A stretch of 64,000 nucleotides of DNA from an uncultured delta proteobacterium (GCA_963841435.1 CAWJCS010000002.1:384001-448000), one strand, 5' to 3'; positions 771 through 18,725 are shown, counted from the first letter of the stretch. Numbers and translations are program-made. The notes: generated by a model from the sequence alone, not told the origin.

Positions 771-2740
771 ATGCGCACGTTGAATCGGTTCTTCGCCATT
801 GCTCTCGTCGCTGCGGCCTCTTACGCCCCGCTCGCGGGGTGCGGCAAGAGTGACCGTCCATGCGAGGAAACGCTGACTTGCCCCGGTACGATCCGGGCGG
901 GGTCTGCCGGTGCGGGCGCGACCAGTGGCAGCGGCGGAGCTGGCACCGGTGGCACGGGTGGCACGACTGGCGGTGGCGGTCGAGGCGGCGCTGCCGCCTC
1001 CGGTCAGGGCGGCGGGTCGGGAGACAGCGCTCTTGGCGGGGGCGGCGGGAGCGGGCAAAACGGGGGTGAAGGTGGAGCTGGCCTCTCCGACGAAGGTGGT
1101 GAGTCGGGAGAAGGCAATCTCGGCGGAGGCGGCAGCTCGCAAGGGGGCGGCGGCTCGGACGCGGGCCTCTCGCAAGATGGGTCCCCATGCTCGGCCGGCC
1201 CGGAGTGCGAGAGCGGGTATTGCGCCGACGGCGTCTGTTGCAATGGCCTCTGCGATGGGCAGTGTGAATCGTGCAAGGAAGGCGGCTCGGTGGGGACATG
1301 CACCCCCGTTCTGGGCACTCCGGTCGCGCCGCGCGCTGACTGCGCGGGGACCGCGCCTTGCAAAGGCGAATGCGACGGCAATGAGACCGAAGCCTGCACC
1401 TTTCCCGATAGCTCGGCCGTTTGTAGTGCCGCCATCTGCACGAACGGCCAGATCACGACCGCGTCGGTTTGCAACGGCTCGGGGGCCTGCACCACGACCA
1501 CCAACAGTGCCTGCCCAGCCGGTGGCTGTGCTCCCGGCAACATGGCGTGCGCGACCAGCTGCACGTCGAGCTCCTGCGGTGCCGGCACCTATTGTGATAC
1601 GACGGGCGCCTGCGTCACGACGCTCGGTCCCGGGCAGAGCTGCTCGGCCGACGTGCAGTGTGGGTCCGGACACTGCGTTCGACGGCGTGTGCTGCGAGAC
1701 TTCCTGCACGGGCCAGTGCATGATCTGCAACTCTGCCGGGAGCTGCGTGCGCAAGACATCCGGAGCTCCAGCGAATGGTCGCGCTGCTTGCACGAGCAGC
1801 GGCACGACTTGCGGCGGCACCTGCAACGGCACTTCGGACACCTGCGCCTATCCTGGCTCGAGCACGAGCTGCGCGACCCCCACGTGCTCCACCGACACGA
1901 CGCAGGTCAACTCGATGGCGTGCAACGGACAGGGCGCCTGCGCGCCGCAGACGATGAGCTGCAACTCCTCATCGTATTGCAAAGGTGGCGCGTGCGTTAC
2001 GAAGGTCGCCAACGGTGGCTCGTGCCAGGGCAGCAACCAGTGCCAAAGCGCAAACTGCTCCACGGATGCCGTCACCGCCACGAGCATTTGCTGCCAGGCG
2101 GGCCGTTCGAACTGCGGCAGCTGCGTTCGACCTGCAGAGCGACGCCTCGCATTGCGGCAGTTGCTCGAATGCTTGCGGCGCGAACCGGGCCTGCCAGAGC
2201 GCGACGTGCCAGTGCACGGGCTACGCGTTCCCCCCGGCATGCGGTCGGTGCGGAAGCTTCGGCTTCGAGTCGGGCACCACGGAAGGCTGGGTCGCGGACA
2301 CCGACCCCAATTTTCCAGTCAACGGCGGCGCCAACAACGGGGTCACGAACGTCACGTTCACCCAGACTCGAGTCCACGACGGCAGCTATGGCCTGGCTGT
2401 CCCCGGCCTCACGAGCTCCGAGGTCGTTTCCGTTGCCGTACCACTGTGTACGGGATCAGCGTCCGTCGCACTCGGCGGCTTCACGATGTCGGCCTGGGTT
2501 TATCTCACGGGTACGACGTTGGACTCGCTTGCGTTCCTGTTCCTCGACGCTTGGAATGCCACGTCGCAAGTCAGTAGTCCCGTCCTGACGGGTAACAACA
2601 TCACGATGAACACCTGGCACCACGTGACGGCAACGTTCAGCTCCGCCATCCAGGCCGACCACGTGGCCATCCGGCTCAACCCGAATACGGCCTGGACCGG
2701 CACGATGTACATCGACAGCGTCGACGTCACGGGCCCGTGA
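771..2740 (+). CDS. Cys-rich repeat lipoprotein with Gly/Ser-rich linker and C-terminal carbohydrate-binding-like beta-sandwich; two +1 frameshifts (~1678, ~2126)
   Basis: MRTLNRFFAIALVAAASYAPLAGC lipobox. Repeats of the C.SG.C.DGVCC type continue across ORFs 471..2588, 910..2577 and 1985..2740. C-terminus FGFESGTTEGW...MYIDSVDV. Confidence 0.8.
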
Positions 2741-2744
2741 GCCC

Positions 2745-4613
2745 ATGAAGGCACCGAAGGCGTCGCAGGACCCGCTGGAGCGGGGGCTCAAGCTACAGCG
2801 CAGTGGGCGCACGAAAGAGGCGGAGTCGGCCTTCCGGCAGCTGATCTCGAAGAACGCACGGCACCACCGGGCGCTGTCCGCGCTCGGCATTCTCATGTTC
2901 GAGACCGGGCGCGTCGAGGAAGCGACTCGCTATCTCGAGCGAGCCGTCCAGGTCGAGCCAAACCCCAAATATCTGACGAACCTCGGCGAGGTCTACCGGC
3001 GACAAGGTCGATTGGACGTCGCCGCGGAGGCATTCGGACGGATCCTCGAAACCGAGCCGAGCTATCCGGACGCGCGCCTGAACCTTGCTTCGGTCCTCGG
3101 CGAGGCGGGCGTCTACGCGCCGGCGCTCGAGCTGCTCCAGCAAGCGGCGGCGTTCGGTCCCGACGGGCCACGCCTCCGGGTTACTCTCGCGTGGGTACTG
3201 TTCCGCCTCAATCGGCCCGACGAATCGTTGGTCCACGCCCGGCGCGCCGTCGAGCTTGCTCCGGACCTCGCATCGGCTCACGGGCAGCTCGGCGACGCCC
3301 TCGATGCGACGGGCGAAAAGGCCGCGGCCCTCGAGAGCTACCGCCGCGCCACCGAGCTCGACCCCTCCAACGACCGTTCTCACAGCGACCTCATCGTCGC
3401 GATGCTCTCGGGTCCGGACTACGACGCCCGGGCCGTCTTCACCGAAGCGCGCGCCTGGGCCGAGCGCCACGCAGAGCCGCTACGAAAGTACCTGCGCGCC
3501 CACGAAAACGACAAAGATCCCGAGCGCCGCCTACGCATCGGCTACGTCTCACCCGATTTTCGGGCGCACGCGATTCAGCAGTTCCTGGTGCCTCTCTTCG
3601 AGCATCACGAAAGGGCCGCATTCGAGATCTTCTTGTATTCGTCCGTGGATCGGCCGGACGCGGAGACCGAATGGTATCGGACGTTCGCGGGGGACCACTT
3701 TCGCGACATTCGACCGCTCGATGACGTTGCGGCCGCCGAGCTCGTCCGCCGCGACCGCGTGGACATTCTGGTCGATCTGGCCCTCCACAGCGCGGGGGGC
3801 CGCCTCAGGACCTTCGCGTGCAAGCCGGCGCCCGTGCAAATGAGCTGGCTCGGCTACGTCGGAACGACGGGCCTCGACACCATCGACTATCGCATCACCG
3901 ATCCTTTCGTCGATCCGCCCGGCACCGAGCTCGGCGCCTACTCCGAGGCCTGCCTCCACTTGCCCGAGACGCTGTGGTGCTACTCGGCGCTCGACACCGA
4001 GCTTTCAGTCGGTGCCCTGCCTGCCCTCGGCGCGGGCCACGTCACGTTCGGTTCTCAGAACACCTACCGCAAGCTCCACGACGCGGTCTTCGTGCTCTGG
4101 GCGCGAGTGCTGAATGCGGTGCCACGGTCGCGACTGTTCCTCTACGCAGAAGAGCATGCGCGCGAGCGGCTCCGCCGAGTGTTCGCTCACGAGGGGATTG
4201 ACGCGGACCGGATCGTGCTCGGAGGCCGGGTTTCGCGCCACGAGTACCTCGAGCGCTATGGTCGCATCGACATCGGGCTCGACACGTTCCCGTTCAACGG
4301 GGCGACCACGACGCTCGACGCGGCGTGGATGGGCGTGCCGGTCGTCAGCCTGAGCGGCTCCTCCGGGTTGCAGCGTGCCGGGGTCAGCATCGCCACGAAC
4401 CTCGGACTTCCCGAGCTTTTCGCGAGCTCCGAGGACGGGTTCGTCGAAACGGCCACCGCGCTCGCGCGCGACCTCGATCGGTTGAGCAAGCTTCGCGCCG
4501 AGCTTCGCTCCCGACTCGAAACGTCGCCGCTCGGAGACGCGCCGCGCTTCGCGCGCCATCTCGAAGCGGCCTATCGTACGGCGTGGCGGCGCTACTGCTC
4601 GGCGCCCGGCTGA
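2745..4613 (+). CDS. TPR-containing O-GlcNAc transferase / SPINDLY-like glycosyltransferase (GT41)
   Basis: N-terminal TPRs; RLRIGYVSPDFRAH, DILVDLALH, KPAPVQMSWLGYVGTTG, DIGLDTFPFNGATTTLDAAWMGVPVV motifs. Confidence 0.92.
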   Translation: MKAPKASQDPLERGLKLQRSGRTKEAESAFRQLISKNARHHRALSALGILMFETGRVEEATRYLERAVQVEPNPKYLTNLGEVYRRQGRLDVAAEAFGRILETEPSYPDARLNLASVLGEAGVYAPALELLQQAAAFGPDGPRLRVTLAWVLFRLNRPDESLVHARRAVELAPDLASAHGQLGDALDATGEKAAALESYRRATELDPSNDRSHSDLIVAMLSGPDYDARAVFTEARAWAERHAEPLRKYLRAHENDKDPERRLRIGYVSPDFRAHAIQQFLVPLFEHHERAAFEIFLYSSVDRPDAETEWYRTFAGDHFRDIRPLDDVAAAELVRRDRVDILVDLALHSAGGRLRTFACKPAPVQMSWLGYVGTTGLDTIDYRITDPFVDPPGTELGAYSEACLHLPETLWCYSALDTELSVGALPALGAGHVTFGSQNTYRKLHDAVFVLWARVLNAVPRSRLFLYAEEHARERLRRVFAHEGIDADRIVLGGRVSRHEYLERYGRIDIGLDTFPFNGATTTLDAAWMGVPVVSLSGSSGLQRAGVSIATNLGLPELFASSEDGFVETATALARDLDRLSKLRAELRSRLETSPLGDAPRFARHLEAAYRTAWRRYCSAPG

Positions 4614-4636
4614 GGGCTCACCCGTCGCCTCCTTCT

Positions 4637-6425
4637 ATGCCGCGCGTTTCCCGACAGCACGACCCGGCCGCACCGAAGCGACGTGAGCGCGCCCGAGTCC
4701 CCGCCTGGCTCTACGTCGTGATGGTGGCCGTGCTCGCCTTCGCGGCCTACAGCCGCCTTCCCGCGCTGCGCGCTCCAGTTGCGCTCGACGACTTCACGCA
4801 GCGAGCGCTCATCGAAGGCAAGCTCGCGCCGGCAAGAAGCATCCTCAATCTCTTCGATTTTTACGCGAATGACAGCCGTGACGCCTTCCTCGACCGCGGA
4901 GCAATCCCGTGGTGGGAATACGTGCCGCACGAAACGGCGCGCTTTCTGCGACCGCTCCCGAGCGCCCTCGTCTGGCTCGACTTTCGCGTCGCCGGTTACG
5001 ATGGCTTCTTGCCACACGTTTTTTCGCTGGCGTGGTGGGTTGCGGCCGTCGCGAGCGGCTTCGTGCTGTTTCGGGGGTTGCTGGGAGCGCGCGCCGCGTT
5101 GCTCGCCACCTCGGTGTTCGCGGTATCTCCTGCGCACACCGTCCCGGTCGTCTGGCTCGCGAATCGTGGCGTGCTCGTCACGCTCGTGTTCGGGGCGTGG
5201 GCGCTGCTCTATTACGCGCGCTTCCGCGAACGGGGGCTCCGGCGTGACGCCATCGTGAGCGGCGTGCTGTGGGCGGCGACGTTTTCGACGGGGGAGTACG
5301 CCCTGTGTTTCGCCGGGTACGTGCTCGCCATCGAGCTCTCGCGACGCGAGGAGACTGCCCTCTCGCGCTTGCGAAAGGCTTCGAGCTTCTTGCTGCCGTT
5401 CGTCGTCTACCTCGCCCTACACGCGGCGCTCGGGTACGGAGCACGAGGGTCTTCGTTTTATCGGAGCCCCCTCGCGGATCCGAACGGCTACCTCGGCGGC
5501 GCGCCGCGCGGGCTTGCCGTGCTGCTGGGCTCGCTCTGGTTCGGGATCCGCGACGAAGCCCTGACGGCAGCGCCCGCTCGCTCGCTCGCTCGTGCTCTGG
5601 GGCATTCCGCTCGCGAGCGTTCTCGGCCTCGCGCTGTTTCGCACGGGCGCGAGCCTGAAGCCCGAACGCCGAACGCGCTTCGTCTGGCTCGTGGCTGGAT
5701 CCGCGATCGCTCTTTTGCCGGTGCTTTCGGCGGGCGCTTCCATGCGGCTTCTCGGCCCGGCCGCGCTCGGCGCGAGCGCCGGCATCGGACTCGTCATCGA
5801 AAGGGCGCTCTTTGGTCGGTCCCGGCAGGAGACGGGCGCCGGCCCAGCGAACGTCGTCGTTTCGCTCGTGGCCCTCGGCCTTGCCGTCTCGCACTTCGCG
5901 ATCGTGCCCGAACAAGCACACGCGTTCACGGCCCTCGCCGCGCAGAAGGAACCGGAGTTCGACGCGCGAATGGCGTGGGTGCGGGCACGAATGACCCCGG
6001 AAAAGTCCACCATCGTCGTGCTGCGCAGCGTTTCGCCGCCAACGGCGTTCGTCGCTCCCTTCATGCTGCGAGACGCCGCGCCTGCACGCTTTCGAGTCCT
6101 GTGCCAGGCGTACGGGCGGATCGCTGTCGTACGTTCCGGCCCGCGCACCCTGGACGTGACTCAAGACGGCAACGAGCCCCTGGTGCACTTCGGTGTGGGC
6201 AATCCGGTGCGTGCCGTCCCATTCCAGGTGGGGGAGGTCGTGGAGGTGCCGGGCATGCGGGTCATAGTCGGCCAGCTCGACGCGGATGGCCTGCCCAAAA
6301 AGCTTCATTTCGAGTTCGATCGGGATCTCGACGATCCGTCGTTCTTCTGGATCCAGGCAGGTGTTTCCGGGTTCTCCGAGGCGTTCCTGCCCCCCGTCGG
6401 CTACGGGATGCTGCTTGCGCCGTGA
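4637..6425 (+). CDS. Polytopic membrane protein, GT-C-like glycosyltransferase; +1 frameshift at a (GCTC)4 tract 5576-5591
   Basis: Many hydrophobic helices, LDDF after TM1, FLRPL motif; reading continues in ORF 5592..6425. Confidence 0.65.
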
Positions 6426-6474
6426 TCACGCGTGACATGAAGGCGCCCCTCGTGCCCGCTTGGATCTCGCAACG

Positions 6475-6789
6475 CTACGGCTCGAGCCGAACGCGATAGG
6501 CTTGGCTCCGCACGCCCGGAGCGAGCGGTCCGCTCGCGCAGCCAACCACGACCTTGCCGTCGGCGCTGATGGCGTGTGCGCTCTCCAAGCTCCAGTCCTC
6601 GAGCATGTCTTCGAAGCCCCGCTCGTGCATCGCGTCGAGAAGGCTCCGCATGCCACCGGCGCGGTCCCAGAAGAAGGCCTCGCTCGGGTTCGCGGCGGGC
6701 GCGGCCGTCCCGACGATCCGCTTTCCATCGCCAGAAACGTCTCTCGCCGCGCTCCCGAAGTCGCCGAGCTCCGGAGGTCTCGGGACCAC
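6475..6789 (-). pseudogene. C-terminal fragment of a HAF-type extracellular repeat protein
   Basis: SAARDVSGDGKRIVG...EAFFWD...GGMRSL...WSLESAHAISADGKVVVG repeats; no signal peptide; similarity starts right at the stop of the upstream gene. Confidence 0.55.
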
Positions 6790-6790
6790 A

Positions 6791-7189
6791 TCATGGGCAA
6801 CTCCTCGAGCTGACGGCCACTCCGGATGGCGCGATGCTGAACGCGATTTCACCCTTGTGCCCCAATCCATTCGCTTCGAGCACGTAGTGCCGGCCTGGCT
6901 CGAGTTTGGGGCAGCCCGGAAGGCCACTGCCATACGGCCACGTCGCCGCGGGAGTGATGGCCCCTGCGCACAGGCGGCTGGCCCCTCTGCTCCCATCTTG
7001 CCGGCGGATGGAAACGAACTCGACCTTCTCTTCTCCGCGAAGAAAGAGCCCACAGTCCTGGAAGGAGAAGACCAACCCTGAGGGGAATTGCATCACGTCG
7101 ATGCGGAGGTCGCGCGAGCACGCCAGCAAGCCGATGCCAAGTATCGTGACAGCGGGGGTCAACGGATGGACGCGGCGGCCGGCTCCCAT
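6791..7189 (-). CDS. Small lipoprotein, candidate immunity protein for the upstream RHS toxin tip
   Basis: 132 aa with TILGIGLLAC lipobox; GAGGAG upstream; begins 32 nt after the toxin stop codon. Confidence 0.6.
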   Translation of the reverse strand: MGAGRRVHPLTPAVTILGIGLLACSRDLRIDVMQFPSGLVFSFQDCGLFLRGEEKVEFVSIRRQDGSRGASRLCAGAITPAATWPYGSGLPGCPKLEPGRHYVLEANGLGHKGEIAFSIAPSGVAVSSRSCP

Positions 7190-7220
7190 GCTTAGTCATC
7201 TCCTCGAGCTTTCTCCGAGT

Positions 7221-10200
7221 CTACCGAGACACCACGAAACGAGCAATCTCGGCAAAAGGGGCCATGCCGCCAGGGCTCTTCACTAGGTCCTGCAAGACAT
7301 AGTCCTCGAACATGTGTGCTTGCTGCTCAACGCCCGCCATTAGGAAGCGCAAGAACATCTCGTGGGGGGCGCTGCTCGCCGCGTACGCGTACGGATCGAT
7401 CCCCAGGAGGGAGCCTCCGATACCCAAAGAAAGACCGTCGGCCGTGACCGAAAGGAAATGCCCGTGGGATCGTTGCCAAACGTGAAACGCCTCGTGGGCG
7501 AGCGTTCCGGCGGCGTTGAGACTCTTGAAATTGACTTCGTTCGCAGCGTTCGACTTCACAAAATAGCTGGGCTTGAGCCAGATCTTCCGGCCGTACGGAT
7601 TCATCCCCACCGCGAACTTGCGCAATGCGGCGGGCATCGCCTCGACGTCGATAGAGTCGTAGTCGAGCGAACCACCATAGTAGCGCTTCAGAAACGCCCG
7701 CTCGTTCGCCGTGAGCGGACGCTTTCCATCTGCGTCCACATGATTGATCGGGTCGTTCCCACAGTACGCGTACACGTTCGTGTCCCCAGCCCCGAACCCG
7801 ATCGGATCCTTCGAAAGCCAGCGTCCGAGCGCGCCCGAGTAGTCTCGCGCGCCGAAGCGGGTGTAGCCGGTGTAAGCGTCGTCGAGGCCGCCCGCGAAAC
7901 CGAAGGGCTGGAAACCGGGGTTGGTGTCGCCCGTGACGTGGCCGAAGGCGTCGTAGTCGAGCTTTTGTTCGACGACGCCGGTCTGGGCGTTGACGACGAG
8001 GCGCACGCTGCCGACGTGGTCCTTGATGACGCGGTAAGGGACGCCGGCGCGCAGGATGTAGTCGGGGGCGCCGCCGATGGCGTCGTCGGCGTAGATGAAG
8101 TGCATGAAGATGCCGGCAGAGTTGACCTGGCCGACGGGACGCAGGCCGTCGCGATAGACCCACGCAGCGTCGAACTTACCGTCCACCTGGCGGGCGACGC
8201 GGCGGCCGAGGCCGTCCACCTTGTAGCTGATGACTCGCGTCGTACCCGAGCGGTTCTGCGTGACGGACAGGAGGTTGCCGAGCGCGTCGTAGACGAGCTC
8301 GTTGGCGTCGTCGCCGTCGCTCATGCGCAAGAGGTCGCCCTGCGGAGTTGCCTCGACGTCGGTGCTACCGAAGCGCGTCAGGCGATCCTGAGCATCGTAG
8401 TCGGCGTCGGCGACGAGGGCGCCATCGACGCTCACCGAAGTGCGGTTGCCGTTCGCGTCGTAGTCGTACTCCGTCGTGGTGCCGTTGACCGTCTCCTTCA
8501 CCAGCCGGCCGAGCTCGTCGTAGTCGTAGTCGATGCCGCGCTCGCCGTTGCCGATGATTTCGTCGATGTGCGTGATGCGGCCCAGTGCGTCACGCTCGAG
8601 CTTCTCGGTGAAGTTGACGTTGCCCTGGAAGGCCGCACGCAGACGCGACGGCTCGCCAAAACCATTGTAGTCGGTGGCCGTGGTCACCGTGCCGAGCGTC
8701 GTGTTCGTGATGAACCCGCTCTTCGCGTCACGCTCGATTTGGTACGTGACGTTGTTGGCGGTGGCCGAGGTCACGAGGCCGTCGTCGTCGTACGTGAACT
8801 TCGCCGTGCTCGAGCCGTTGACGGTCATCGAGGCGAGGAAGAAATTCTCGTCGTACTTGGCGGTGACGCTGCCGTCGATGGCGCCTGACCAGGTGCTGCC
8901 CGTCCAGAGTGGCCCGTCGTGGCTCAGCGTGACTTTCACGCTGTCCGAGCGATTGACGGACGTGAGCATGCCGCCCGAGTCGTAGCCATAGCTGATGGTC
9001 GCGTCGGGGATCTCGAGCGACTTCAAGCGGCCGCTCGCGTCGTCGTAGTGAAAGTCGAGGTTTTGACCGTCGGAGCGCGCGATCTGCAAGAGCTGCCGGT
9101 CGTCGTTGTAGTCGTAGCGGGCGCCGCCCACGGGCAGGTCGTTCTTGCCCGACCCGGAAACGGCCGGGGGCGTGCTGAGCTCGAGCAGGCTCGTCTTGGG
9201 CTGGTACGCGAAGGTGTGCGCGCCGCGGCCCGGAGGCGTGAGCGACAGGAGATTGTCGTCGTCGTCGTAGTCGAACGTGACCGCTTCGTCGTCGGGGCGG
9301 AGCAGCGACTGGATGCGCCCCACGAGATCCGACTCGTACTTCACGCGGTTCCCTTCAGGGTCTTCGCGCTGGGTTAGAAAGCCGTTGGCGTCGTATTCAT
9401 AGGCGACGCGGCGGACGTTGCCGTCGGCGCTCGCTGTCGTCTCGATGAGGCGCCCGAGCTCGTCGTACTCGAAGTGCAGCGACGGCAGCCCCGCCGCGAC
9501 GACGTTCGGTGCGGCGGCCGCGCTCGTCGAGCGTCGTCGTTCTCTGCCGGCCCACCGGCGTCGTCGTCGTGATGCTCCGATCGTCACGCAGGTAGAGCGT
9601 CTCGAACAACCGACCGTTCACGTCGGTGAGCTCGTCCCATTCCTCGACCGACAGCGCATTTTTGATGTCCGTCAGGCGCTTGCCGCGCATCTGGGCAACC
9701 TCGAGCGTGGAGCCGCTCGGAAGCTTGGTGGTGACGGTGCCGGGGTAGAGGGCCTGAGCGCCAAAGGCGGGGTCAGGGAGCAGCAGCGCGGTGGTCGTGC
9801 TGCCGTCAGCGCTTTTGAGCGTCCGGCTGATGGCCGTGTCGTCCCAGCGCACGATGCTGCTGTCGGGCAGATGGACCACGCGCTCGAGCGTCCCGCCGAG
9901 CCCTGCGACGAAATCGTAGGTCGTCTGGCGGCCGGCAGCGGTGGTGACCGAAACGCTCGTGCCGCCTTCGATCGCAACGCGCTCCAGGGTTTCCGTGTAG
10001 CCCGTCGGGTCGGTCGTGCTCGTGAGCGCGCCGTCCACGTACACCGCGTTGGTGATGCCACCGAGCGGGTCGGTGACTTTGGAAATTAGATCCGCGTCGT
10101 ACTCGAACGCGGTATCCCGACCGAGCGGGTCCGTGACTTTGTCGATACGGCCGCGATCGTCGAGCGTGACTTTGGTTTCTTGCAGGAAGGGCCCCTTGAA

Positions 10201-13200
10201 GCCCGTCAGATTGCCGCTCGGGTCGCGGTCGACCAGCGTGACCTGGCCGTTCTTGTCCTTGAGCGTCTCGAGGTGACCTTGCTCGTCGTAGCCGAGCTCG
10301 AGCTCGGTGACGCCGGTCACGGCATCGATGGTCGCCTCGTGCCGCCCGCGCTCGTCGAAGCGGAACAGTGTGGTGCCGTCGGTCGAGGGGACCAGCGACT
10401 GATCCGCTGACAGATCGGGCAAGCCGGGCGCGACCTTGAAGACGCTTTCACGCGTGGCCACGAACAGCGCGCCGTCGCGCCCCACGGCGATGCCGTCCGG
10501 CTCGGTGATGCGCACCTTCTCGGCGAGCTGCCCTTCCTCGAGGCTGGCGTCGCCTCCACCCATGACGGTCTGGATCAAGCCCTCGGTCGTGACCCGGCGG
10601 ATGCGATCGTTCCATTGATCGGCGATGTAGAGCGAGCCGTCTTCCGACAGAGCGAGGCCGCGCGGGCCGTTGAGCTCGGCGTTCTGGGCGCTGCCTCCGT
10701 CACCGGAGAAGCCGGGCGTGCCGGTGCCGGCGACCGTCAGGATGATGCCGCCTGGCGTCACCTTGCGGACGCGGTGGCCGCCTTCCTCTCCGTCGACGCC
10801 GCGCTCGGAGATGTACACCGTGCCGTCGGGGGCCGCGACGACAGCGCTCGGCTCGACGAGCGTCGCCTCGCGCGCCGGCAAACCGTCCCCGCCTTCACCG
10901 CCACCTGCGAACACTTCGAGCACGCCGCCCTCGAAGCGAAACACGCGATCGATGTCGACGATGTAAAGCTCCTCCCGCGGCCCGAGGGCGAGCCCGTCTA
11001 CCTTCGCGAGGTCCGCCACGGCCACCGGATTGTCCGAGGCGGGACCGACGAGCGTGCTGACGGCTCCGCCCGGTGCGATGGCGCGCACGGCCTTCTTGCC
11101 GAAATCCGACACGATGATGGTGCCGTCGTCCTTGACCACGACCCCCTGGGGCGAGCCGAGCACGAGGTCGCCCGCCTCGCCGCTCGCTCCGGCGCCGGCC
11201 ACGACCGTCGTCACTCCCTCGGGGTCGATGCGCAAAATCCTGCCCTGCGGGTCGAGTGAGTCCTCTTGGTCGTCAGTGACGATCAGGCTGCCGTCGGGCG
11301 CGACGCCGATTCCGTCCGGCGTGCCGAGGTCTTCTTGATTGCTCGGGCGCGTGACGACGAGGGCCACGTTCTGCGCGGTGCGAAGGTCGCCCGTGCCGAA
11401 GAAGATGGTCTGGCTCGCCGGATCGTAGGCGTGCAAAACGTCGAGACCGAAGCCGCCGAGCGCGTAGCCCTTCGCATCCCAGACGCCGATGGGTACTTCC
11501 TGCACCTGGGACAGCACGGCGTCGCCGATCGGCGTCGTCTCCTCTGTGGTCCCGGGAATGCCGAAGCCTTCGCCCGCCGCGACTTCGCCGTCGAAGACGA
11601 AGCCGGTGACGACGCGCGCGATCTGCGGCCCCTGAACGAGCCGCCCGAAGCCGTCCTTGCCGTCCCACGACACGACCCGTTTCAGGTTCGGCTCGGGCGC
11701 GAGGGTCTCCTCGAGCGTCTGACCCGCGACCTCGACGACGGAGATCACCTGCTTTAGCCCCGCGGGAACGTCGTCCGAAAGCAACGGTAGCTCGAGCTGG
11801 AAACCGGGCCCGTAGCTCGTGGTGCGGTCGGATTGATAGTGAAGGGAATAGGGTGTCCCGGCGATCGGCACCGCTTGCGACAGCGCTTGCGGCTCGACCA
11901 CGGCGGCGCCGCGACGGGTCGGTTCGTCGAGGACGCGCGTCGCGATGCCCTGGACGTTCGGGGCGATCGCATCCGGGGGCGCCTCGACCGGGAACAGCAT
12001 GTCCCACGAGGAGAAGTGGTTGACGCGCGAGCGCCAGAGCGTCGCGCCCTTCTGGTAGCGGGCGCCGAGCGCGGCGCGTTCGTCTTCGGTCACGCCGGCG
12101 TCGAGCGCGGCGCTCGCAGCGTCCTCGGCGCCGTCGCCGTCGAGATCGAGGACGGCCTTGCCGTTGACGATGTCCAGGACCTCGATGACGCGGCCCGTGT
12201 TGCCGTGCTGCCACTGGCTCTGCTTCTTTTCGTAGTAGCCGAGCGGGACGGAAGAGCCGACGGGTAGGTCGAGGAAGTTCTCGACGTAGACGCTGACCGG
12301 GGTGGAAAGCGCGACGCTCGTGGCGCCAAGCGCGTCGGCCTCCGCGACATCGATCGAGAGGCCGTAGCTCAGCCCACCGGAGACCGGGAGCGTGCCGGGA
12401 GCGAAGCGGGCGGTCGAGACCCAGTTTTCGGCCGTCGGCGGCTCGAAGGGGTACTCGGTGACGCGCAGCGACGCGGCGTCGAGCTTCTTCTGGTCACCGC
12501 CGGGAAGCCGCGCCGTGAGCGTCGTCCCCGGGCGGAACACGAGAAAGGGCTGGCGGGCCCCGAACGCGTCGTCGATCGGGTCGCCGACGGCGGTCTGGGT
12601 CCCGGTGCTGCCGGAACGCACGGACGAGAGGTGCTCGCTCGCCGCGATCATGCCGACCTCGGGGAGCCGGTCGTAGCGCTGCCAGCCGGGCAGGGCGCTC
12701 CGCTCGACGCTCAGGTAGCCCCCGCGCTCGTAGCGGAACACGAGACGCCCGCCGCCATTCACCGCCAGGTCGAACAGGCCGTCGGGGCGCGATTCGGTGT
12801 AGCCGTACTCGTCGTGTCCCACCACCGAGACGCGCACGCCGGCGAGGGCCTCGCCGGCGCGATCCACGATTTTACCACGCACGATGGCCACGCGGCGCCG
12901 GTCGAACGCCGAGGGTTTCGCATCCTTTTGCAGTGGGTCCGCGCCGGAACAAAGAAACGTGGCTGCGAGGTCCACCGTGGTTGCCACCGAGCGATCGAGC
13001 GCGGGGGCGAGGCCACAAAAAGGCGTGGTCAGCCGGCAGTCGAGATCGTCGCAGTCGGCGCGGCCATCGTGATCATCGTCGGCGCCGTTGTCGCAGGCGG
13101 TTTCCGTAGCGCCAGGCTCGGCGGAAGGACCGGCACCATGGGGCGCCTTTTCGCCGCCGCAAGCGGCGACGAGCAAGAAGAGCAGGCACAGGGAAGCCCG

Positions 13201-13221
13201 AGGGCGAGGGGGGAGCGTCAT
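7221..13221 (-). CDS. Teneurin-like lipoprotein / RHS polymorphic toxin (Cys/Asp motif, carboxypeptidase-regulatory-like domain, FN-plug, NHL propeller, YD shell, RHS core, HExxH tip); +1 frameshift ~9508
   Basis: MTLPPRPRASLCLLFLLVAAC lipobox; ETACDNGADDDHDGRADCDDLDC; VRGKIVDRAGEALAGVRVS...DGLFDLAVNGGG; NHL repeats (TVAGTGTPGFSGDGG); YD repeats; RDYSGALGRWLSKDPIG...YAYCGNDPINHVDADG; AHEAFHVWQ. Joins ORFs 9397..13617 and 7221..9587. Confidence 0.88.
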
Positions 13222-13229
13222 GCCAGCCG

Positions 13230-13256
13230 ATCGGGCGCGCGAAAACGCTCGTTGCA
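13230..13256 (-). promoter_or_regulatory. Putative sigma-28-like promoter (TGCAACG-N14-CCCGAT) for the teneurin-like toxin
   Basis: Minus strand TGCAACG agcgttttcgcgcg CCCGAT, 8 nt before ATG 13221. Confidence 0.7.
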
Positions 13257-13288
13257 ACAAAGTGCGTCGGGCGCGAAAACAATCGAAG

Positions 13289-13315
13289 CGCAACGAGCGG
13301 GGCGCGGCGACCGAA
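13289..13315 (+). promoter_or_regulatory. Putative sigma-28-like promoter (CGCAACG-N14-ACCGAA) for the first Flp pilin
   Basis: CGCAACG 13289-13295, ACCGAA 13310-13315, just upstream of GTG 13324 / ATG 13327. Confidence 0.6.
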
Positions 13316-13326
13316 GGGACCAGGTG

Positions 13327-13509
13327 ATGTCCCGGTGGTCCTTTGGTTCGGGTGGTTTCCACGACGAACGAGGCAGCGTCAGTGTGGAGTACGCGGTGCT
13401 GCTCTGCGTCGTGGCGATTGTTTGCGCCTTCGCCGTCGCCGCTCTCGGTGCCCCGCTCGTCACGGCCTACGAGGGCCGCGTGACCCTGCTGCTGCTGCCT
13501 TTCCCCTGA
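13327..13509 (+). CDS. flp: Flp-type pilin-like protein
   Basis: DERG/SVSVEYAVLL class IVb prepilin cleavage motif followed by a hydrophobic helix; 60 aa. Confidence 0.75.
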   Translation: MSRWSFGSGGFHDERGSVSVEYAVLLCVVAIVCAFAVAALGAPLVTAYEGRVTLLLLPFP

Positions 13510-13533
13510 GCGCTGCAAGCGACCGGAGAATCT

Positions 13534-13560
13534 TGCAACGGCCGAAATGGCCCGACCGAA
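13534..13560 (+). promoter_or_regulatory. Putative sigma-28-like promoter (TGCAACG-N14-ACCGAA) for the second Flp pilin operon
   Basis: TGCAACG 13534-13540, ACCGAA 13555-13560, intergenic. Confidence 0.65.
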
Positions 13561-13625
13561 GGGGAGGGGAAACGGGAGCGGGGCCGCCCGGACGGTCTTG
13601 TCCCGCAAAAGGAGCAATCGAAGCC

Positions 13626-13873: not shown

Positions 13874-14428
13874 ATGGCCCCTTCCCTGATCGTCGACTCC
13901 GCCTCGCTTCTCGTGGGAGGCGTGGGCGCGGTCTGGGACGCCCGTTCCGGGCGCATCCCCAACCGCCTCACGCTCCCCGCGGGGGCCCTGGCCATCGTGC
14001 TTCACGTGGCGCTCGGCGGACTTTCAGAGGGCGTGGAGAGCATCCTCGGGCTGTTGCTCGCCGGGCTCTTGCCGTTCGTGCTTTCGAAAGCCACCCGTGG
14101 CCGCGCCATCGGTGGCGGCGACGTGAAGCTGTTCGCGGCGCTCGGCGCCCTCGAGGGGCCACTCGTCGGGCTCCAAATAGAGCTCTGTGCCTGCATTTTG
14201 CTCAGCACGTTCGCGCTCTTGCGCCTGGCCTTCGCGGGAAAGCTCCTTCGAGTGCTCGGCAACGCCCTCCGCTTGTTCGCCAACCCGCTCCTGCCGGCGC
14301 GCTTTCGAAAGCCCCTTTCGCCCGAGGCGCTCACCGAGCTTCGCATGGGCCCGGCGATTCTCGGCGCGGTCTTTTACGCGTGCTTCGCCAACCAGCTGGC
14401 ACGGTGGGTGCCGTGGCTCGCACTCTGA
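13874..14428 (+). CDS. cpaA: Prepilin peptidase, A24 family (CpaA/TadV)
   Basis: WDARSGRIPNRL and IGGGDVKLFAALGA catalytic Asp motifs; hydrophobic. Confidence 0.92.
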   Translation: MAPSLIVDSASLLVGGVGAVWDARSGRIPNRLTLPAGALAIVLHVALGGLSEGVESILGLLLAGLLPFVLSKATRGRAIGGGDVKLFAALGALEGPLVGLQIELCACILLSTFALLRLAFAGKLLRVLGNALRLFANPLLPARFRKPLSPEALTELRMGPAILGAVFYACFANQLARWVPWLAL

Positions 14429-14442
14429 GCTCCGGGGTCGCG

Positions 14443-15358
14443 GTGCGCTACGGCGCACGCTCGGTGGCGGCCACGGGTCGCGACGAGCGTGGCGTCGTGT
14501 ACCTCGAGTTCTTGCTCGCGTTCATGCCGGTGTTCGTGCTGTTCCTCGCCGTGTGCCAGCTCTCGCTGCTCTACACGGGAGCGCTCGTGGTCCGGCATGC
14601 TGCCTACGCGGCCGCGCGCTCCGCCATCGTCGTGCTCGAGGACGACCCGGCGCGCTACGAACAGGTGCCGCGCGGCATGCTCACGACCGAGCCCCCCGCG
14701 CCCGGCACCGGGCCGGCGTCGCTACTCGCCACCCTGGGCCTTGCCACGGGCGCGAACCCGGCGGCGCTCGCGCAGCAGGCCATCTCGTCGGTCGAACAAG
14801 CCGCGGCGGGGAGCTCGAACGACCACGATTTTCCGCCTCAGCAGGGCGCCCGCATGGTGACGATCCGCACGGCCGCCTACCTCTCGCTCATCACCCTCGC
14901 GCCCAAGGCCCCGCCCGCGGGCTCCCGCAACGATACGCTGAGAGCCAGCATCTCGCAGGATTTCTTCGCGGATCTCGGCCTCGGCCCTCGCGTACACGGA
15001 CGCCGCGGCCGTCGTCACGCTGCACGTCGGCGGCACCGAGGCGCTGGCGGCGGAGCCCATCCCGCTCGACGCCCCCGTCACCGCGAGAGTCACGTACCTC
15101 TACACCTGCAAGGTTCCCATCGTTCGCGCGCTCATCTGCCGCACGCTCGCCTCCCTTTTGCCCGCGGGTGACGAAGGGCAGCCTGGAAATGGTGACGAGC
15201 CCACGCCGGCGCAGGCGCTCGCCGACCGCCTTCGCCTCGCGGAGCGTCCAAGCTGGCTCACGATCGTGATGGAGCCCGGCGCGCGCGTCAGCGTGATCGA
15301 CGCTGCGGTGACGCTGCCGAACCAGGGCGCTCACTACGAGCACACGGAGGGCGGATGA
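14443..15358 (+). CDS. TadE-like pseudopilin; +1 frameshift ~14984
   Basis: DERG/VVYLEFLLAFMPVF...HAAYAAARSAIV; continues in the frame of ORF 15158..15358 (VTARVTYLYTCKVPIV...VTLPNQGA). Confidence 0.8.
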
Positions 15359-17172
15359 CCCGCCACGAAACCCGGCTCGACGAGCGCGGCGCGATGGCGC
15401 TGGTCACGGTCTTCTTCGCCGTCTTCGCCGTGGGCATGCTGTACGCGTTCGTGGGCAGCGTCGAAGCGGTGTTGTTTCGCGAGCGCATGCAGGATGCCGT
15501 CGACTCTGCGGCGCTCTCGGGCGCCGTGATGCACGCGCGGAGCATGAACTTCATCGTGCTCGTCAACATGGTGATGGCCGCGCTGCTCGCGATCCTCATC
15601 GCCATCAAGCTCGCCGAGACGCTGGCCATCATCGGGATGATCATCGCCGCGGTGCTCGCCTGGCCGACGTTCGGCGCGAGCCTCGCCGCCATCCCCGTGC
15701 TCAAGCCCGTGCAGGAAGCGTTGCACGACGCGTACGACTCGCTAAAGGGGCCCGTCGACACCGCGCTCGAGGGCCTGCACACGCTCTCGAGCGCCGTCCA
15801 GGCGGGCGCCGTCGTCGCTGCCGAGCTCCAGGCGCAAAGTGATCTCGAGAAGCACTGGAAGCCTCCCGTGAAATTCGGCGCGGTGATCGGGCGCGTCGAG
15901 CTCACGCTGCCGCTCGAGGACGACTCCTTCGGCGTGCTGTGCGAGCACGGCGGCGAAACGGCCGCGGAGCTCGCACTGTTGCCGCTCGATCCGGTGTTCG
16001 ATGCCGTCCCACCGTTCGCCAAGGCGAAAGGCGCGCTGGTGTCCGCCACCGGGGAGATGACCGGCGCCATGCAGAGCTGGTTCTGCGGGGGAAGCAACGA
16101 CCACGCCCCCACGTTCGAGCGCACGGTCGAGCGCGCCTATCCGCGCTTCGCGGCGAACGACCTTTGCGAGGACACGAACGCGCCGCCCGAGGAGTCGGCA
16201 GACGCCTGCAGCGAGGCCAGCCGGTTCGACGAGGACTCGACGCCCGACAAGGACACGGGAAAGTGTCGAGCTGGGACGAATTGCTCGATCGGCGGGCCGT
16301 ACGAGCAGCGCGTCGCCGCGGCTCGCGTCCAGTGCGACCCGCAAACGCAGCCCACGCCGTTCTTCTACTGGTATCAGCTCCGACAGGGTCACGTTCGCTA
16401 CCTCTGGAACGTCAACCACTGGGAGCGGCAGGAGCCGACCTACGACCCTCCCACCGTCTACCCGCCCGATCTCGAGCATGCGCCGTCGACGACGCGCCCT
16501 CCCTGCGGCCCGCCCCGCACCAACCGCGTTTACGCCGACGGCTACAACGTGACCGTTCGTCGCGCCAGCGACGTGAACGAGGTGCTGCCGGTGTGCAGCA
16601 CCGAGCAGCCGCCGCTCGCTGCTCCGTTGATCACCCGAGGAACCGACCCGGACGAGCCCATCTATTCGGCGCCGATCACCTTCACGGAGGTCACGCACAT
16701 CCTGGGCTGCAAGAAGAACGTGCAGGTGTCGCTCGGCGGCGGGGACGACACGCCGCCCCAGAGCGACGGCGACTCGCGCTCACCCAAGCGCGTGCTCGCC
16801 GGGGTCGATCTCGGGGCGGAGGATTTCCAAATCCGCGGCTTCGTGGTCGGCGATTTCGACGCGGGCAGCGCGTCACGGCTGGTCCGACTGTCGCTCTTCG
16901 GGCGACGTGCACCGGAACAGCCGCTCGGTGAGCTCAGAGCGCTCGGCAACGTCGCGGTGGCTCAGACCGAATACTTCTACGACGGCGCGGAGGGTCGTGA
17001 CGCTTGGATGTGGAACATGAAATGGCGCGCGCGTCTCAAGCGCTTCAAGGTGCCCGAGTCGGGCGCGCTCGACGGGTTGACGGGCGCCTGCGGCGCGGGA
17101 GAAGGGGGCGAGACGGGCTGCGGCGCGCTCGGCGACGTGCTCGGGCGGCTGGGCGATCTGATCGCGCATTGA
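15355..17172 (+). CDS. TadG-like minor pilin/adhesin with Cys-rich extracellular region
   Basis: DERG/AMALVTVF...MQDAVDSAALSGA Tad N-terminal motif; start overlaps the upstream stop (ATGA). Confidence 0.8.
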   Translation: MTRHETRLDERGAMALVTVFFAVFAVGMLYAFVGSVEAVLFRERMQDAVDSAALSGAVMHARSMNFIVLVNMVMAALLAILIAIKLAETLAIIGMIIAAVLAWPTFGASLAAIPVLKPVQEALHDAYDSLKGPVDTALEGLHTLSSAVQAGAVVAAELQAQSDLEKHWKPPVKFGAVIGRVELTLPLEDDSFGVLCEHGGETAAELALLPLDPVFDAVPPFAKAKGALVSATGEMTGAMQSWFCGGSNDHAPTFERTVERAYPRFAANDLCEDTNAPPEESADACSEASRFDEDSTPDKDTGKCRAGTNCSIGGPYEQRVAAARVQCDPQTQPTPFFYWYQLRQGHVRYLWNVNHWERQEPTYDPPTVYPPDLEHAPSTTRPPCGPPRTNRVYADGYNVTVRRASDVNEVLPVCSTEQPPLAAPLITRGTDPDEPIYSAPITFTEVTHILGCKKNVQVSLGGGDDTPPQSDGDSRSPKRVLAGVDLGAEDFQIRGFVVGDFDAGSASRLVRLSLFGRRAPEQPLGELRALGNVAVAQTEYFYDGAEGRDAWMWNMKWRARLKRFKVPESGALDGLTGACGAGEGGETGCGALGDVLGRLGDLIAH

Positions 17173-17182
17173 CGAGGCGACC

Positions 17183-17683
17183 ATGACGAGACCTGAACGG
17201 GGACGAGCACCAAGGCACGGCGCGAGCGCAGGGCGCGGCGTGGCAACCGCCGAGGCCGTCGTCGCCTTGCCCGTCCTCGTGCTGCTCTTCGTCGCGCTCT
17301 TCTATTTTCGCGATCTGTCGGCCGCGCGGCACGAGGCCGCCATGCAGGCGCGGAGCTGCGCCTGGCTGTACTCCGCCGGCAACTGCCGCACGGTGCCGCC
17401 CGGCTGCGAGCTCGAAACGGAGCCGGCCGTCGACGATCCGCCGATCCCCTTACCCGACGCGGGCCCCGTGTCCGGCATCATCGACGGCCTGTTGAAGAAG
17501 GCGCTGCGCAGCATCTTCGGCGACGCGGCGGTCGCGACGGCCCATCGCGACGTTCGCCGTCCCGCGCCGCTCGGTAAAAGCAGCGTGCGCGTCTCGTCCG
17601 AGTATCATCTCCCCTGCAACCTCGCGCCGAGCCGGCCCCTCGACGTCGCCAAGGATGCCTGGAGGATCTGGTGGGGGCCATGA
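17183..17683 (+). CDS. TadE-like pseudopilin
   Basis: GRG/VATAEAVVALPVLVLLF...AAMQARSCAW. Confidence 0.8.
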   Translation: MTRPERGRAPRHGASAGRGVATAEAVVALPVLVLLFVALFYFRDLSAARHEAAMQARSCAWLYSAGNCRTVPPGCELETEPAVDDPPIPLPDAGPVSGIIDGLLKKALRSIFGDAAVATAHRDVRRPAPLGKSSVRVSSEYHLPCNLAPSRPLDVAKDAWRIWWGP

Positions 17684-18630
17684 CGCGCCTCGCTCGCCCG
17701 AGCCGGCCCTCGCTCACCGTCATCGAGCCGACCTTCGAACGGAAGGCGCGTCGCGCGATCTCGACGGCCATTGGCGCCCTTCGCGTCGCGCTGACGCTCG
17801 CCGCCCTGCTCGCTCTCGCCTCCCTCCGTTCGGCGCACGCCGCCGAAGAAGAGGTCGGCGCCCGTCTCTCGCGGTTTGGGGAAGCGCTCAGCGAGCTCGA
17901 AGGGCTTCATCCGCACTCGGCGCCACGCCGACTCGTCATGAACGGCATGGAGCTCGGCGTCCTCGGCATGTCCACGGAGCTCGAGCTCGACGAAGCGCTC
18001 GAGCGGCTCGAATCGACTTGCGGGCGAGGCGGGCTCGACGTACCCGGGGCGCTACTGCACGAGCCGGGAAATGCCCCGGGCGGGGGCGCGCTCGGGCGGC
18101 TTTCTCGCGGCGTGCTCAGGCAACGGAGCGGCGACCGCGGCGTGCTCGCCTGCCTGGACACCGGGGAGCGCCTCGCTCGGACCACGCTCGCCGAGCGGCT
18201 CGGTCGCCTGGCGAAGACCGGCGATCTTGGCGCCGTGGGGGCACTCCGGTTCGCTTTCCTCAGTCGCACGGGCCGAACGACGACCGTGCTTTTCATCTGG
18301 AGCACCGGCAGCCTGCCGATCCTTGCGGCGTTTCCGAAGACGGGTGATGCGCCGGGCCGCGATCTCGACGGCATCCCGCGGCCCGAGGGGTCGCGCCGTC
18401 TGCTCTCCGCCGCCGAAGCGGGCTCGCCGTACGCGCTCGGCTTGTACGAAGACGCAGCCGCCTCGCCCAATCCGCTCGCCACGTACGCCGCCCTGCTCGG
18501 CGCGCGCGGCTTCACCGTGACGCGGGTCTCCGGCGAACGATTGTGGGCCCGCCTGGGCACCCGGGAGCTCGTCGTCAGGGTGACCAGGCACGGCTCGAAA
18601 GCGCTCTATTCACTGGCCCTGCTCGGCTGA
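17680..18630 (+). CDS. Tad-locus-associated membrane-anchored hypothetical protein
   Basis: ATGA overlap with the upstream gene; single N-terminal hydrophobic helix; in operon. Confidence 0.7.
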   Translation: MTRLARPSRPSLTVIEPTFERKARRAISTAIGALRVALTLAALLALASLRSAHAAEEEVGARLSRFGEALSELEGLHPHSAPRRLVMNGMELGVLGMSTELELDEALERLESTCGRGGLDVPGALLHEPGNAPGGGALGRLSRGVLRQRSGDRGVLACLDTGERLARTTLAERLGRLAKTGDLGAVGALRFAFLSRTGRTTTVLFIWSTGSLPILAAFPKTGDAPGRDLDGIPRPEGSRRLLSAAEAGSPYALGLYEDAAASPNPLATYAALLGARGFTVTRVSGERLWARLGTRELVVRVTRHGSKALYSLALLG

Positions 18631-18653
18631 CTGGGCGCCCGCGAGAGCTTTCC

Positions 18654-18680: not shown

Positions 18681-18725
18681 GAGGGGGTGAGGGCGCCCGG
18701 CAGCGAGCGGCGCTCCGCGAGGACC

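Follow-up and report, generated by a model that had tools for sequence, protein, structure and literature searches.

A gene for a predicted teneurin-like lipoprotein with a predicted VgrG2b-type toxin domain in a Polyangiaceae-type myxobacterium

Introduction

Bacterial teneurin-like proteins (TLPs) are the presumed ancestors of the teneurins, receptors that are needed for the wiring of the animal nervous system. In this study, we analysed a stretch of 64,000 bp from an uncultured delta proteobacterium (GCA_963841435.1, CAWJCS010000002.1:384001-448000), hereafter the window, from whose first nucleotide all positions are counted. On its minus strand it carries a gene for which an earlier inspection without database searches, called here the sequence-only reading, had claimed a bacterial lipoprotein with the full extracellular superfold of the teneurins, including their Cys/Asp motif. 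The locus raises the question whether this likeness reaches beyond generic repeats, what such a protein might do for its producer, and whether it bears on the origin of an animal receptor. Based on the analysis described below, we regard the gene as coding for a TLP of the polymorphic toxin class from a Polyangiaceae-type myxobacterium, with a putative caged toxin, a predicted lipoprotein anchor and a reading frame that is probably intact; for this explanation as a whole we estimate a probability of roughly 85%.

Proteins of this kind have been described before. In Nat Commun 2026 (PMC13018210), Raoelijaona et al. presented cryo-EM structures of the TLP of Bacillus inaquosorum and described 139 TLP-positive genomes from six phyla, including more than 20% of the species of Myxococcota. 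They found a domain named TIP (for teneurin insertion protein) in 96% of TLPs and reported self-cleavage both at the Rhs core and within the FN-plug, toxic polymorphic C-terminal domains averaging about 15 kDa, and immunity genes immediately downstream, and for the TLPs of Myxococcota they predicted SEC/SPII (signal peptidase II) signals and lipoprotein anchoring. Since the gene studied here fits this description, it is a further member of the family published in 2026, to which it adds a toxin with the fold of VgrG2b, a candidate lipoprotein immunity gene and a frameshift that is to be read, very probably, as an artefact. The family itself turned out to be far wider than 139 genomes, as a pattern scan with one genome per species gave at least 581 confirmed loci, and, of 60 further genera in the family to which the window belongs, 14 revealed a match at E <= 1e-30. 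The sole point of wider interest is an acidic Cys/Asp motif fixed directly upstream of the transthyretin-like (TTR) domain in a clade that consists mostly of metagenome bins, while the annotation is otherwise ordinary.

Gene extent and domain architecture

The gene runs from 13221 to 7221 (about 2,020 codons, stop codon at 7221-7223) and is carried by two overlapping open frames of the minus strand at 9397-13617 and 7221-9587. All seven blocks quoted in the sequence-only reading were found on this strand in the order claimed. Of its proposed span of 7725..13221, the start was right, but at 7725 only the Rhs core ends, and a C-terminal domain of 166 residues was thus omitted. The deduced product comprises, in order, a signal peptide with a lipobox, a single acidic Cys/Asp motif (also called the C-rich motif), the TTR domain, a TIP insert, an FN-plug, an NHL propeller, a YD shell, an Rhs core and the C-terminal domain; the coordinates are collected in Table 1. 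The blocks stood as they had been named, but TIP, the putative toxin domain and the candidate immunity gene had gone unnoticed.

Comparison of the upstream frame with solved structures using phmmer identified the bacterial TLP of Bacillus (9pt5/9ifo) with an E value of 1.7e-205, in agreement with the statement of the sequence-only reading that bacterial teneurin-like proteins are known. Animal teneurin-2 followed at E 3.4e-43, and other animal teneurins were weaker. Matches of such strength greatly exceed what chance would give. One continuous alignment of residues 203-755 with residues 360-927 of the Bacillus chain spans the TTR, TIP and FN-plug domains, and additional alignments fall into the YD part and, repeatedly, into the NHL region. 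The Pfam models TTR_TEN1-4, TEN_NHL and TEN_YD-shell all exceeded their curated cut-offs, bearing out the claimed superfold, and Pfam together with NCBIfam also revealed the NHL repeats, YD repeats and Rhs core that had been proposed. The block that had been called carboxypeptidase-like is the TTR domain, for which TTR_TEN1-4 scored far above its cut-off. The TIP segment matched no Pfam family, and its name and position were taken from PMC13018210. By homology, the predicted series of TTR, TIP, FN-plug, NHL, YD shell and Rhs core is the same as in the solved Bacillus TLP, and, as in that protein (BiTLP) and in the TLPs of Myxococcota, it ends in a short polymorphic C-terminal domain.

A likeness confined to generic NHL and YD repeats would have spoken against a relationship to teneurins. 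This is not what we observed, because the TTR and the FN-plug segments each matched animal teneurins when searched alone. The piece with the C-rich motif and the TTR domain matched 18 distinct sequences in the PDB, every one a TLP or a teneurin. The FN-plug piece retrieved 18 TLP or teneurin sequences at E <= 9e-4, apart from three noise rows with E > 0.5, and its blocks QALSQAVPIAGTPYSLHYQSDRT, WDGKDGFGRLVQG and LGGFGLDVLHAYD aligned to their teneurin counterparts, although the Pfam model FN-plug_TEN1-4 gave only 18.9 bits, which is under its cut-off of 27.8. A structural model of the C-rich and TTR piece had a predicted local distance difference test (pLDDT) score of 83 overall and of 91-98 over the TTR domain. 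Superposition, which had been suggested as a check, placed teneurins as the best matches of the linker and TTR model (Z 15.3-18.6) ahead of generic TTR domains (12.9), since the linker helix superposes too.

Starting from the ATG at 13221, the product opens with MTLPPRPRASLCLLFLLVAAC, a basic and then hydrophobic predicted signal peptide of 20 residues that ends in the lipobox LVAA before the cysteine. As regards the lipoprotein claim, this lipobox is directly visible and recurs among relatives. The strict lipobox pattern was present in 30 of 42 motif-bearing relatives, and most of the remaining 12 had variants (LPAC, LNAC, LEAC, SVGC) or truncated starts. A lipid-anchored TLP is not new, however, as those of Myxococcota are already in print (PMC13018210).

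Predicted C-terminal toxin domain and candidate immunity gene

Searches of the C-terminal domain against Pfam and NCBIfam detected no family. Among solved structures, its sole relative by sequence was the C-terminal effector domain of VgrG2b from Pseudomonas aeruginosa (6h56); the match covers residues 3-143 including the HExxH, so that HEAFH is aligned with HEMTH of 6h56. The domain was modelled with a pLDDT of 93, and Foldseek returned 6h56 with E 1.5e-4, probability 1.00 and template modelling (TM) scores of 0.67/0.63 over 165 columns, i.e., over the whole domain length. The 6h56 rows were the only 2 of 364 listed matches with E <= 0.001. In 46 aligned members of the toxin family, E77 and E132 were invariant and H76 and H80 were kept in at least 90%, while three of the 46 weakly matched eCIS_core and two matched DUF6782. 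Altogether, 85 relatives of the domain were found at E <= 0.001 in 1.84 billion representative proteins, one of them being the public gene call for the 3' half of the window's gene; they are mostly short, and their consensus opens with a remnant DPxG. Homology in sequence and modelled fold thus indicates that the domain is a putative HExxH metallopeptidase with the fold of the VgrG2b effector, which was described as a zinc metallopeptidase with periplasmic toxicity (Wood et al. 2019, PMC6899460).

Directly downstream lies an open reading frame (ORF) for a small lipoprotein that we consider a candidate immunity gene. Its GC content by codon position (0.63/0.55/0.76) fits this frame, in contrast to an overlapping frame on the same strand (0.75/0.65/0.53), which gave no fit, and an ORF on the opposite strand (0.59/0.60/0.72), which was less clear-cut. 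The toxin domain revealed matching values (0.61/0.43/0.76), so that third-position GC is 0.76 in the toxin domain and the downstream ORF as against 0.86-0.89 in the rest of the gene. A shared composition of this kind is what a swapped toxin-immunity cassette usually shows. The deduced protein matched no Pfam or NCBIfam family, and its nearest Protein Atlas clusters were unnamed lipoproteins recognised below the trust level, which serves as a lead only. Immunity proteins of the VgrG2b type were described as envelope-targeted, often lipoproteins, and as having conserved cysteines (PMC6899460). Further downstream, an ORF on the minus strand at 6478-7053 ends in an HAF repeat (TIGR02913, E 2e-5); its upstream part overlaps the immunity ORF, so that its real start is probably later.

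Concerning the Rhs core, the two Asp residues are 24 apart, which corresponds to the spacing of D2116 and D2140 in the Bacillus TLP. The second motif reads DADG here, where the consensus of the clade is DPxG. At the cleavage site of the FN-plug, the Bacillus TLP has Gly-Ser (S724), while the gene of the window has Gly-Ala (RRGAAVVE). To judge this difference, we used the relatives found with the C-rich and TTR region, a set of 90 sequences of which 89 are relatives and one is the window's own protein. The site could be placed by pattern in 48 of the 90, among them 29 with Ser, 8 with Pro and 3 with Ala after the Gly. Gly-Ser is a feature of most members and not a property by which the authors of PMC13018210 defined TLPs.

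These parts suggest the following mode of action. The protein would be exported by the Sec pathway, lipid-modified by SPII at Cys153 and tethered to the envelope, probably to the outer membrane. The YD shell, closed by the FN-plug, would enclose the C-terminal domain, which the aspartyl protease of the Rhs core would cut free. Contact with a cell, either of a competitor or of prey, would lead to release of the toxin, which might act in the periplasm or envelope of the target, and the producer would be protected by the small lipoprotein encoded just downstream.

Several points weigh against this explanation. Lipidation and surface exposure, like calcium binding by the C-rich motif, are predicted from sequence motifs. 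Since Ala replaces Ser at the FN-plug and DADG replaces DPxG, self-cleavage at one or both of these sites may be altered. The downstream lipoprotein is a candidate immunity protein by its position, lipobox and composition, and in one relative whose toxin belongs to the same family (L023) this place is taken by a small membrane protein and not by a lipoprotein. Finally, as regards the frameshift treated below, no public sequencing run was found to cover the stretch; the best one, from a soil metagenome, had a word share of 0.05.

Alternatively, the protein might act mainly as a surface adhesion or kin-recognition receptor, like the animal teneurins, and its C-terminal domain would then not be a delivered toxin. 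This would be in line with PMC13018210, which leaves open a role in cell-to-cell communication for the TLPs of social bacteria, and with the contribution of the calcium-binding C-rich domain to dimer contacts of teneurin-4 (PMC9058538). We consider such a main role improbable, since the HExxH and the conserved Glu are intact in a fold known from a proven antibacterial toxin, this domain and the putative envelope lipoprotein encoded downstream form a compositionally distinct cassette, and the catalytic Asp pair of the Rhs core is present.

Frameshift and integrity of the gene

The sequence-only reading had implied a frameshift, and a frame change is indeed present, precisely one, near 9505/9506, where the codon-position model switched phase. 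When aligned to intact relatives about 2,000 residues long, the two halves join with no residues lost (1144-1224 and then 1224-1306 on P0003), and third-position GC bias is strong in both of them (0.86 and 0.89). We compared this with rpoC and rpoB of the same genome: rpoC is broken into three pieces in three open frames (frame-split two times) and rpoB into four pieces that alternate between two frames (frame-split three times). Since these genes are likewise frame-split, the frame change near 9505 very probably stems from an error in the assembly, and the gene is thus probably intact in the organism. The splits in rpoC and rpoB, located at C3:1310142-1318438, amount to about one indel error per 1.3-1.5 kb, while the TLP gene has one frame change in about 6 kb. 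The comparison with rpoB and rpoC replaced the codon-position model as a window-wide frameshift counter, as the latter was rejected because it could not tell frameshifts from ordinary gene boundaries. No close DNA orthologue across the frameshift was detected among 30 relatives, 18 of them from the same genus, which gave short weak matches only.

Polymorphic toxin genes frequently decay. Were the frameshift real, the organism would harbor a pseudogene whose product, if there is one, would be a lipoprotein of only the N-terminal 1,240 residues or so, which extends from the C-rich motif as far as the first YD repeats. The assembly as given does carry the frame change, and the public gene call has the 3' half as a separate protein of 707 residues (P0093). 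We give this alternative little credence in view of the three and two splits in the essential rpoB and rpoC, which make indel errors common in this assembly, of the strong third-position GC bias in both halves, and of halves that abut on intact relatives without loss. For this genome in general, apparent frameshifts are not to be read as pseudogenes, as the assembly is rich in indel errors.

Broken frames were also seen in other genes. A second, very different TLP copy is located at the end of contig 1 (L015, C1:412000-422596, about 1046-10058) and is spread across at least four frames. Its N-terminus consists of an array of about twelve repeats rich in Cys (DDGNPCT.D.CDP..GV.HTP...GT.C.DA.VCNGAETCDG.G.C), after which come TTR, TIP, FN-plug, NHL, YD and Rhs core, and it has retained the Gly-Ser site of the FN-plug. 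Within the window, a gene for a Cys-rich secreted lipoprotein on the plus strand at 471-2740 (MRTLNRFFAIALVAAASYAPLAGC...) was followed by eye through three frames (471-2588, 910-2577, 1985-2740), and its frame changes are probably two further assembly indels. A gene for a polytopic membrane protein at 4325-6425 (+) is, by eye, split in two frames (4325-6499, 5592-6425), neither half of which matches Pfam.

The Cys/Asp motif upstream of the TTR domain

The sequence-only reading had stated that the Cys/Asp motif of teneurins is kept. This is correct insofar as the motif aligns residue for residue with the C-rich region of teneurins, but it is the bacterial form with four cysteines and not the teneurin form with six. 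The animal consensus is ExxCx(D/N)xxDx(D/E)xDxxxDCxxx(D/E)CCxxxxCxxxxxC, as given by Tucker et al. (2012, PMC3278476), and the gene of the window matches its first 23 positions exactly (E172 to C194). The fourth consensus cysteine is then Arg and only one further cysteine follows, which leaves four cysteines and two possible disulfides, expected as 1-3 and 2-4. The search with the C-rich and TTR piece retrieved, among others, the C-rich crystal chain of teneurin-4 (7plp, 49 residues, E 0.0014). By our own mapping onto the residue numbers of Meijer et al. (2022, PMC9058538), who listed the calcium ligands of teneurin-4, Asn replaces one of its eight acidic ligands, while the other seven are identical. 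The NCBIfam model for an acidic double-disulfide repeat (acid_disulf_rpt, NF033662) matched the motif with E 2.5e-6, under the family cut-off. In the structural model, the motif reached a pLDDT of only 57-76, and the VIA alignment begins at residue 864 of the teneurin-4 chain, so that the motif was not superposed in register.

Among the 90 relatives, 42 harbored the motif in one or two copies, and these are mostly of the Polyangiaceae type; the named ones are metagenome bins of Polyangiaceae, Polyangiales or Myxococcales. Exactly one more cysteine just past the motif was found in 39 of the 42, and the cysteine and Asp columns of the motif were invariant in 38 aligned relatives. In all 23 relatives that could be placed by pattern, the TTR domain starts 48 residues after the motif, and P0080 likewise has motifs upstream of its TTR domain. 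Considering the best 80 of the at least 581 loci from the species-level scan, the motif was present in 11, all from the Polyangiaceae/Polyangiales/Myxococcales group, and in none of the 69 loci from other phyla.

Apart from TLPs, the four-cysteine unit occurs in tandem arrays of 4 to 13 copies in large proteins (P0278, P0279, P0280, P0287, P0293). The array units show 54-66% identity to the C-rich motif of a nematode teneurin, a likeness that points to a calcium module both mobile and conserved. Like the NF033662 repeats of large bacterial surface proteins, the motif of the window follows the pattern C-x-D-G-x-D-N/D-D-x-D-G-x-x-D-C-x-D-x-D-C-x(6-7)-C with four cysteines; unlike these arrays, it is a single copy directly upstream of the TTR linker. 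This single motif would bind calcium and might stiffen the short stalk that joins the lipid anchor to the TTR domain.

Full-text and term searches of the literature revealed no statement of this motif in a bacterial TLP. The main text of the 2026 paper (PMC13018210) mentions a cysteine-rich region for animal teneurins only, and its searchable supplements gave no C-rich context, though alignment gaps or line breaks could hide the motif there and supplements in PDF format fall outside this search. Based on these searches, the motif directly upstream of the TTR domain in bacterial TLPs is possibly unreported.

Bearing on the origin of teneurins

It is plausible that a lipid-anchored TLP with the Cys/Asp motif bears on the origin of the animal receptor, as had been proposed. 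Tucker et al. (2012, PMC3278476) suggested a diatom or algal gene as the source of the C-rich domain, apart from the bacterial YD protein. Tentatively, and as a reading that we consider rather less likely than not, the C-rich module may have been joined to the TTR domain and the rest of the superfold in a bacterial TLP before transfer to the choanoflagellate/animal ancestor, so that one bacterial donor contributed the complete segment that begins with the C-rich motif and ends with the YD shell. A second donor among diatoms or algae would then be unnecessary. The frequency of the motif (42 of 90 relatives), the spacing of 48 residues to the TTR domain (23 of 23), its recurrence in separate parts of the TLP tree and the seven of eight identical calcium ligands speak for a single donor. 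Against it, the module is a common and mobile bacterial repeat, and the better of our two tree models nests the motif-bearing Polyangiaceae clade among the TLPs of Myxococcota; the module may therefore have been captured more than once, independently, at this junction.

Trees were calculated from the region between the TTR domain and the early YD shell, with 59 and then 33 rows chosen from 62 assembled, after three fragments of less than 1,000 residues had been dropped; the sample holds no choanoflagellate and no named Paenibacillaceae sequence. The eukaryotic teneurins formed one clade with a long branch, attached deep on an unresolved bacterial backbone. Under LG+G4, the tree with eukaryotes held together with the motif-bearing Polyangiaceae clade was 11.2 log-likelihood units above the free quick tree (approximately unbiased (AU) test, p 0.69), and that with eukaryotes held with two Bacillota rows was 2.6 units below it (AU p 0.46). 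The former grouping may be a case of long-branch attraction. Under the site-heterogeneous model LG+C20, with a careful search that is incomplete, the motif-bearing Polyangiaceae clade is nested among other TLPs of Myxococcota and not beside the eukaryotes, and the motif requires three changes. Overall, two or three unconnected parts of the TLP tree have the motif. The suggested phylogenetic check thus recovered the eukaryotes as one clade without placing the donor, which may or may not have carried the motif.

If the junction between the C-rich motif and the TTR domain is ancestral, the teneurin ectodomain would consist of the contribution of one bacterial donor plus EGF repeats, a small correction to the two-donor model of 2012.

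Comparison with other teneurin-like and toxin systems

Like the Myxococcota TLPs described in PMC13018210, the gene of the window has a predicted SPII lipoprotein signal and is followed by a small downstream gene. Unlike the published TLPs, it encodes no Ig-like or other adhesion domains; no more than about 20 residues separate its predicted lipid anchor from one acidic Cys motif, after which comes the TTR domain. It represents a minimal natural form, with a lipid anchor, one calcium module and then the superfold. A further difference is that the putative toxin domain is of the VgrG2b metallopeptidase type and not a membrane-active peptide. This minimal form is paired with a toxin family so far studied on the spikes of type VI secretion systems (T6SS), which indicates that toxin domains move freely between delivery scaffolds.

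Each part shared with animal teneurins (6fb3, 8r50, 7bam) was detectable by sequence, and the linker and TTR domain also by predicted fold. Differences were found at both ends of the protein. Animal teneurins possess a type II transmembrane helix and EGF repeats in place of the lipid anchor, and the Pfam scans of the gene revealed no EGF family; where an animal teneurin has an intracellular domain, a type II transmembrane segment and eight EGF repeats, the N-terminus here has the predicted signal peptide of 20 residues with its lipobox. In addition to the difference in cysteines (four versus six), a TIP domain is present, unlike in most animal teneurins, the cleavage residues of the Rhs core (the catalytic Asp pair) are kept, and a metallopeptidase toxin stands where animal teneurins have ABD and Tox-GHH, for which no Pfam matches were obtained.

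The likeness to the VgrG2b C-terminal effector with PA0261 (6h56, PMC6899460) comprises the fold of the whole domain (TM 0.67), the HExxH followed by a conserved Glu, and a small, Cys-bearing and envelope-targeted immunity candidate. The two domains share 24% identity, and the carrier is a YD-shell lipoprotein here and a T6SS spike there. T6SS Rhs effectors and TcB/TcC cocoons likewise have a YD/Rhs shell around a self-cleaved C-terminal toxin and an Rhs core, and they matched weakly (E 1.7e-7 to 3e-4). They are without FN-plug, TTR and TIP and are delivered by PAAR/VgrG or TcA, while no PAAR/VgrG or TcA partner was seen adjoining the gene of the window.

Table 1. Positions in the window of the features of the TLP gene, the candidate immunity gene and the seven blocks of the sequence-only reading.
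Feature	Position	Strand	Evidence or remark
Start codon, signal peptide and lipobox (MTLPPRPRASLCLLFLLVAA followed by C); codon of the Cys predicted to be lipid-modified at 13159-13161	13159..13221	-	Read from the translation
Single acidic Cys/Asp (C-rich) motif ETACDNGADDDHDGRADCDDLDCRLTTPFC, four Cys	13015..13104	-	Alignment to the C-rich region of teneurin-3
Linker from C-rich motif to TTR, with short helix	12907..13014	-	Aligns to Bacillus TLP and animal teneurins
TTR domain	12649..12906	-	Pfam TTR_TEN1-4, E 3.7e-22, 78.5 bits (cut-off 27)
TIP domain, about 240 residues, approximate bounds	11923..12648	-	Within the continuous alignment to Bacillus TLP 360-927
FN-plug domain, approximate bounds	11353..11922	-	Piece alone: Bacillus TLP E 1.4e-24, teneurin-2 E 1.6e-7
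NHL beta-propeller, approximate bounds	10378..11352	-	Pfam TEN_NHL E 2.9e-19, 69.7 bits (cut-off 27.1); NHL E 1.3e-12
YD shell, first part, upstream frame	9506..10377	-	RHS_repeat, YD_repeat_2x; Bacillus TLP 1105-1565
Single frame change in a G+C-rich run	9495..9530	-	Frames abut on intact relatives
YD shell, second part, downstream frame	7956..9505	-	Pfam TEN_YD-shell E 4.8e-22, 78.3 bits (cut-off 50); RHS_repeat E 1.2e-27
Rhs-associated core, predicted self-cleavage motif DPIG ... DADGK	7722..7955	-	NCBIfam Rhs_assc_core E 1.1e-19, 70.7 bits (cut-off 32.5)
Putative C-terminal toxin domain, 166 residues, HEAFH at 7482-7496; stop included	7221..7721	-	phmmer to VgrG2b effector domain 6h56, E 0.0057
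Candidate immunity gene for a putative lipoprotein of 132 residues (lipobox GLLAC and another four Cys), separated by 32 bases from the toxin gene upstream	6791..7189	-	ORF listing
Block MTLPPRP (start)	13201-13221	-	
Block ETACDNGADDDHDGRADCDDLDC	13036-13104	-	
Block IVRGKIV...	12826-12885	-	
Block YGYTESRPDG...	12748-12807	-	
Block QALSQAVPIAGTPYSLHYQSDRT	11821-11889	-	
Block WDGKDGFGRLVQG	11629-11667	-	
Block LGGFGLDVLHAYD	11422-11460	-	

Neighbouring Tad locus and other genes of the window

Upstream of the TLP gene and divergent from it, a Tad-type locus extends on the plus strand from 13874 to 24926. Its genes encode an A24 prepilin peptidase, a conserved protein of 605 residues that belongs to no family, RcpC/CpaB, a secretin, an FHA-fused CpaF ATPase and two T2SSF (TadB/C-like) proteins. 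An FHA-fused ATPase is the signature of the Kil system of Myxococcus, the toxin of which is given as unknown in PMC8460266. Deployment of the TLP toxin with this neighbouring Kil-like apparatus, suggested by the resemblance in locus content including that ATPase (PMC8460266) and by three related loci with a TLP beside parts of the locus (L018 and L025 (upstream) and L027 (downstream)), is highly improbable, since none of ten other TLP-holding genomes of the family has its TLP within 2 Mb of the orthologous ATPase on the same contig and, among the best 80 of the at least 581 TLP loci, only L018 has the ATPase within the fetched flank. A linkage to Kil/Tad as a general feature was rejected in view of these ten genomes. 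Because the adjacency is missing there and rare among the best loci, it looks like an inherited gene order in one narrow lineage with no functional link.

Further genes were annotated in other parts of the window. The region at 46530-56810 (+), a stretch of lower GC content (0.62-0.65), encodes two very large hybrid sensor kinases, the first with ten PAS, HisKA, HATPase and two receiver domains, and the second with three receivers, GAF, PAS, HisKA and HATPase. Finally, the gene at 2745-4613 (+) encodes a TPR protein fused to a glycosyltransferase domain of family 41 (O-GlcNAc-transferase-like).

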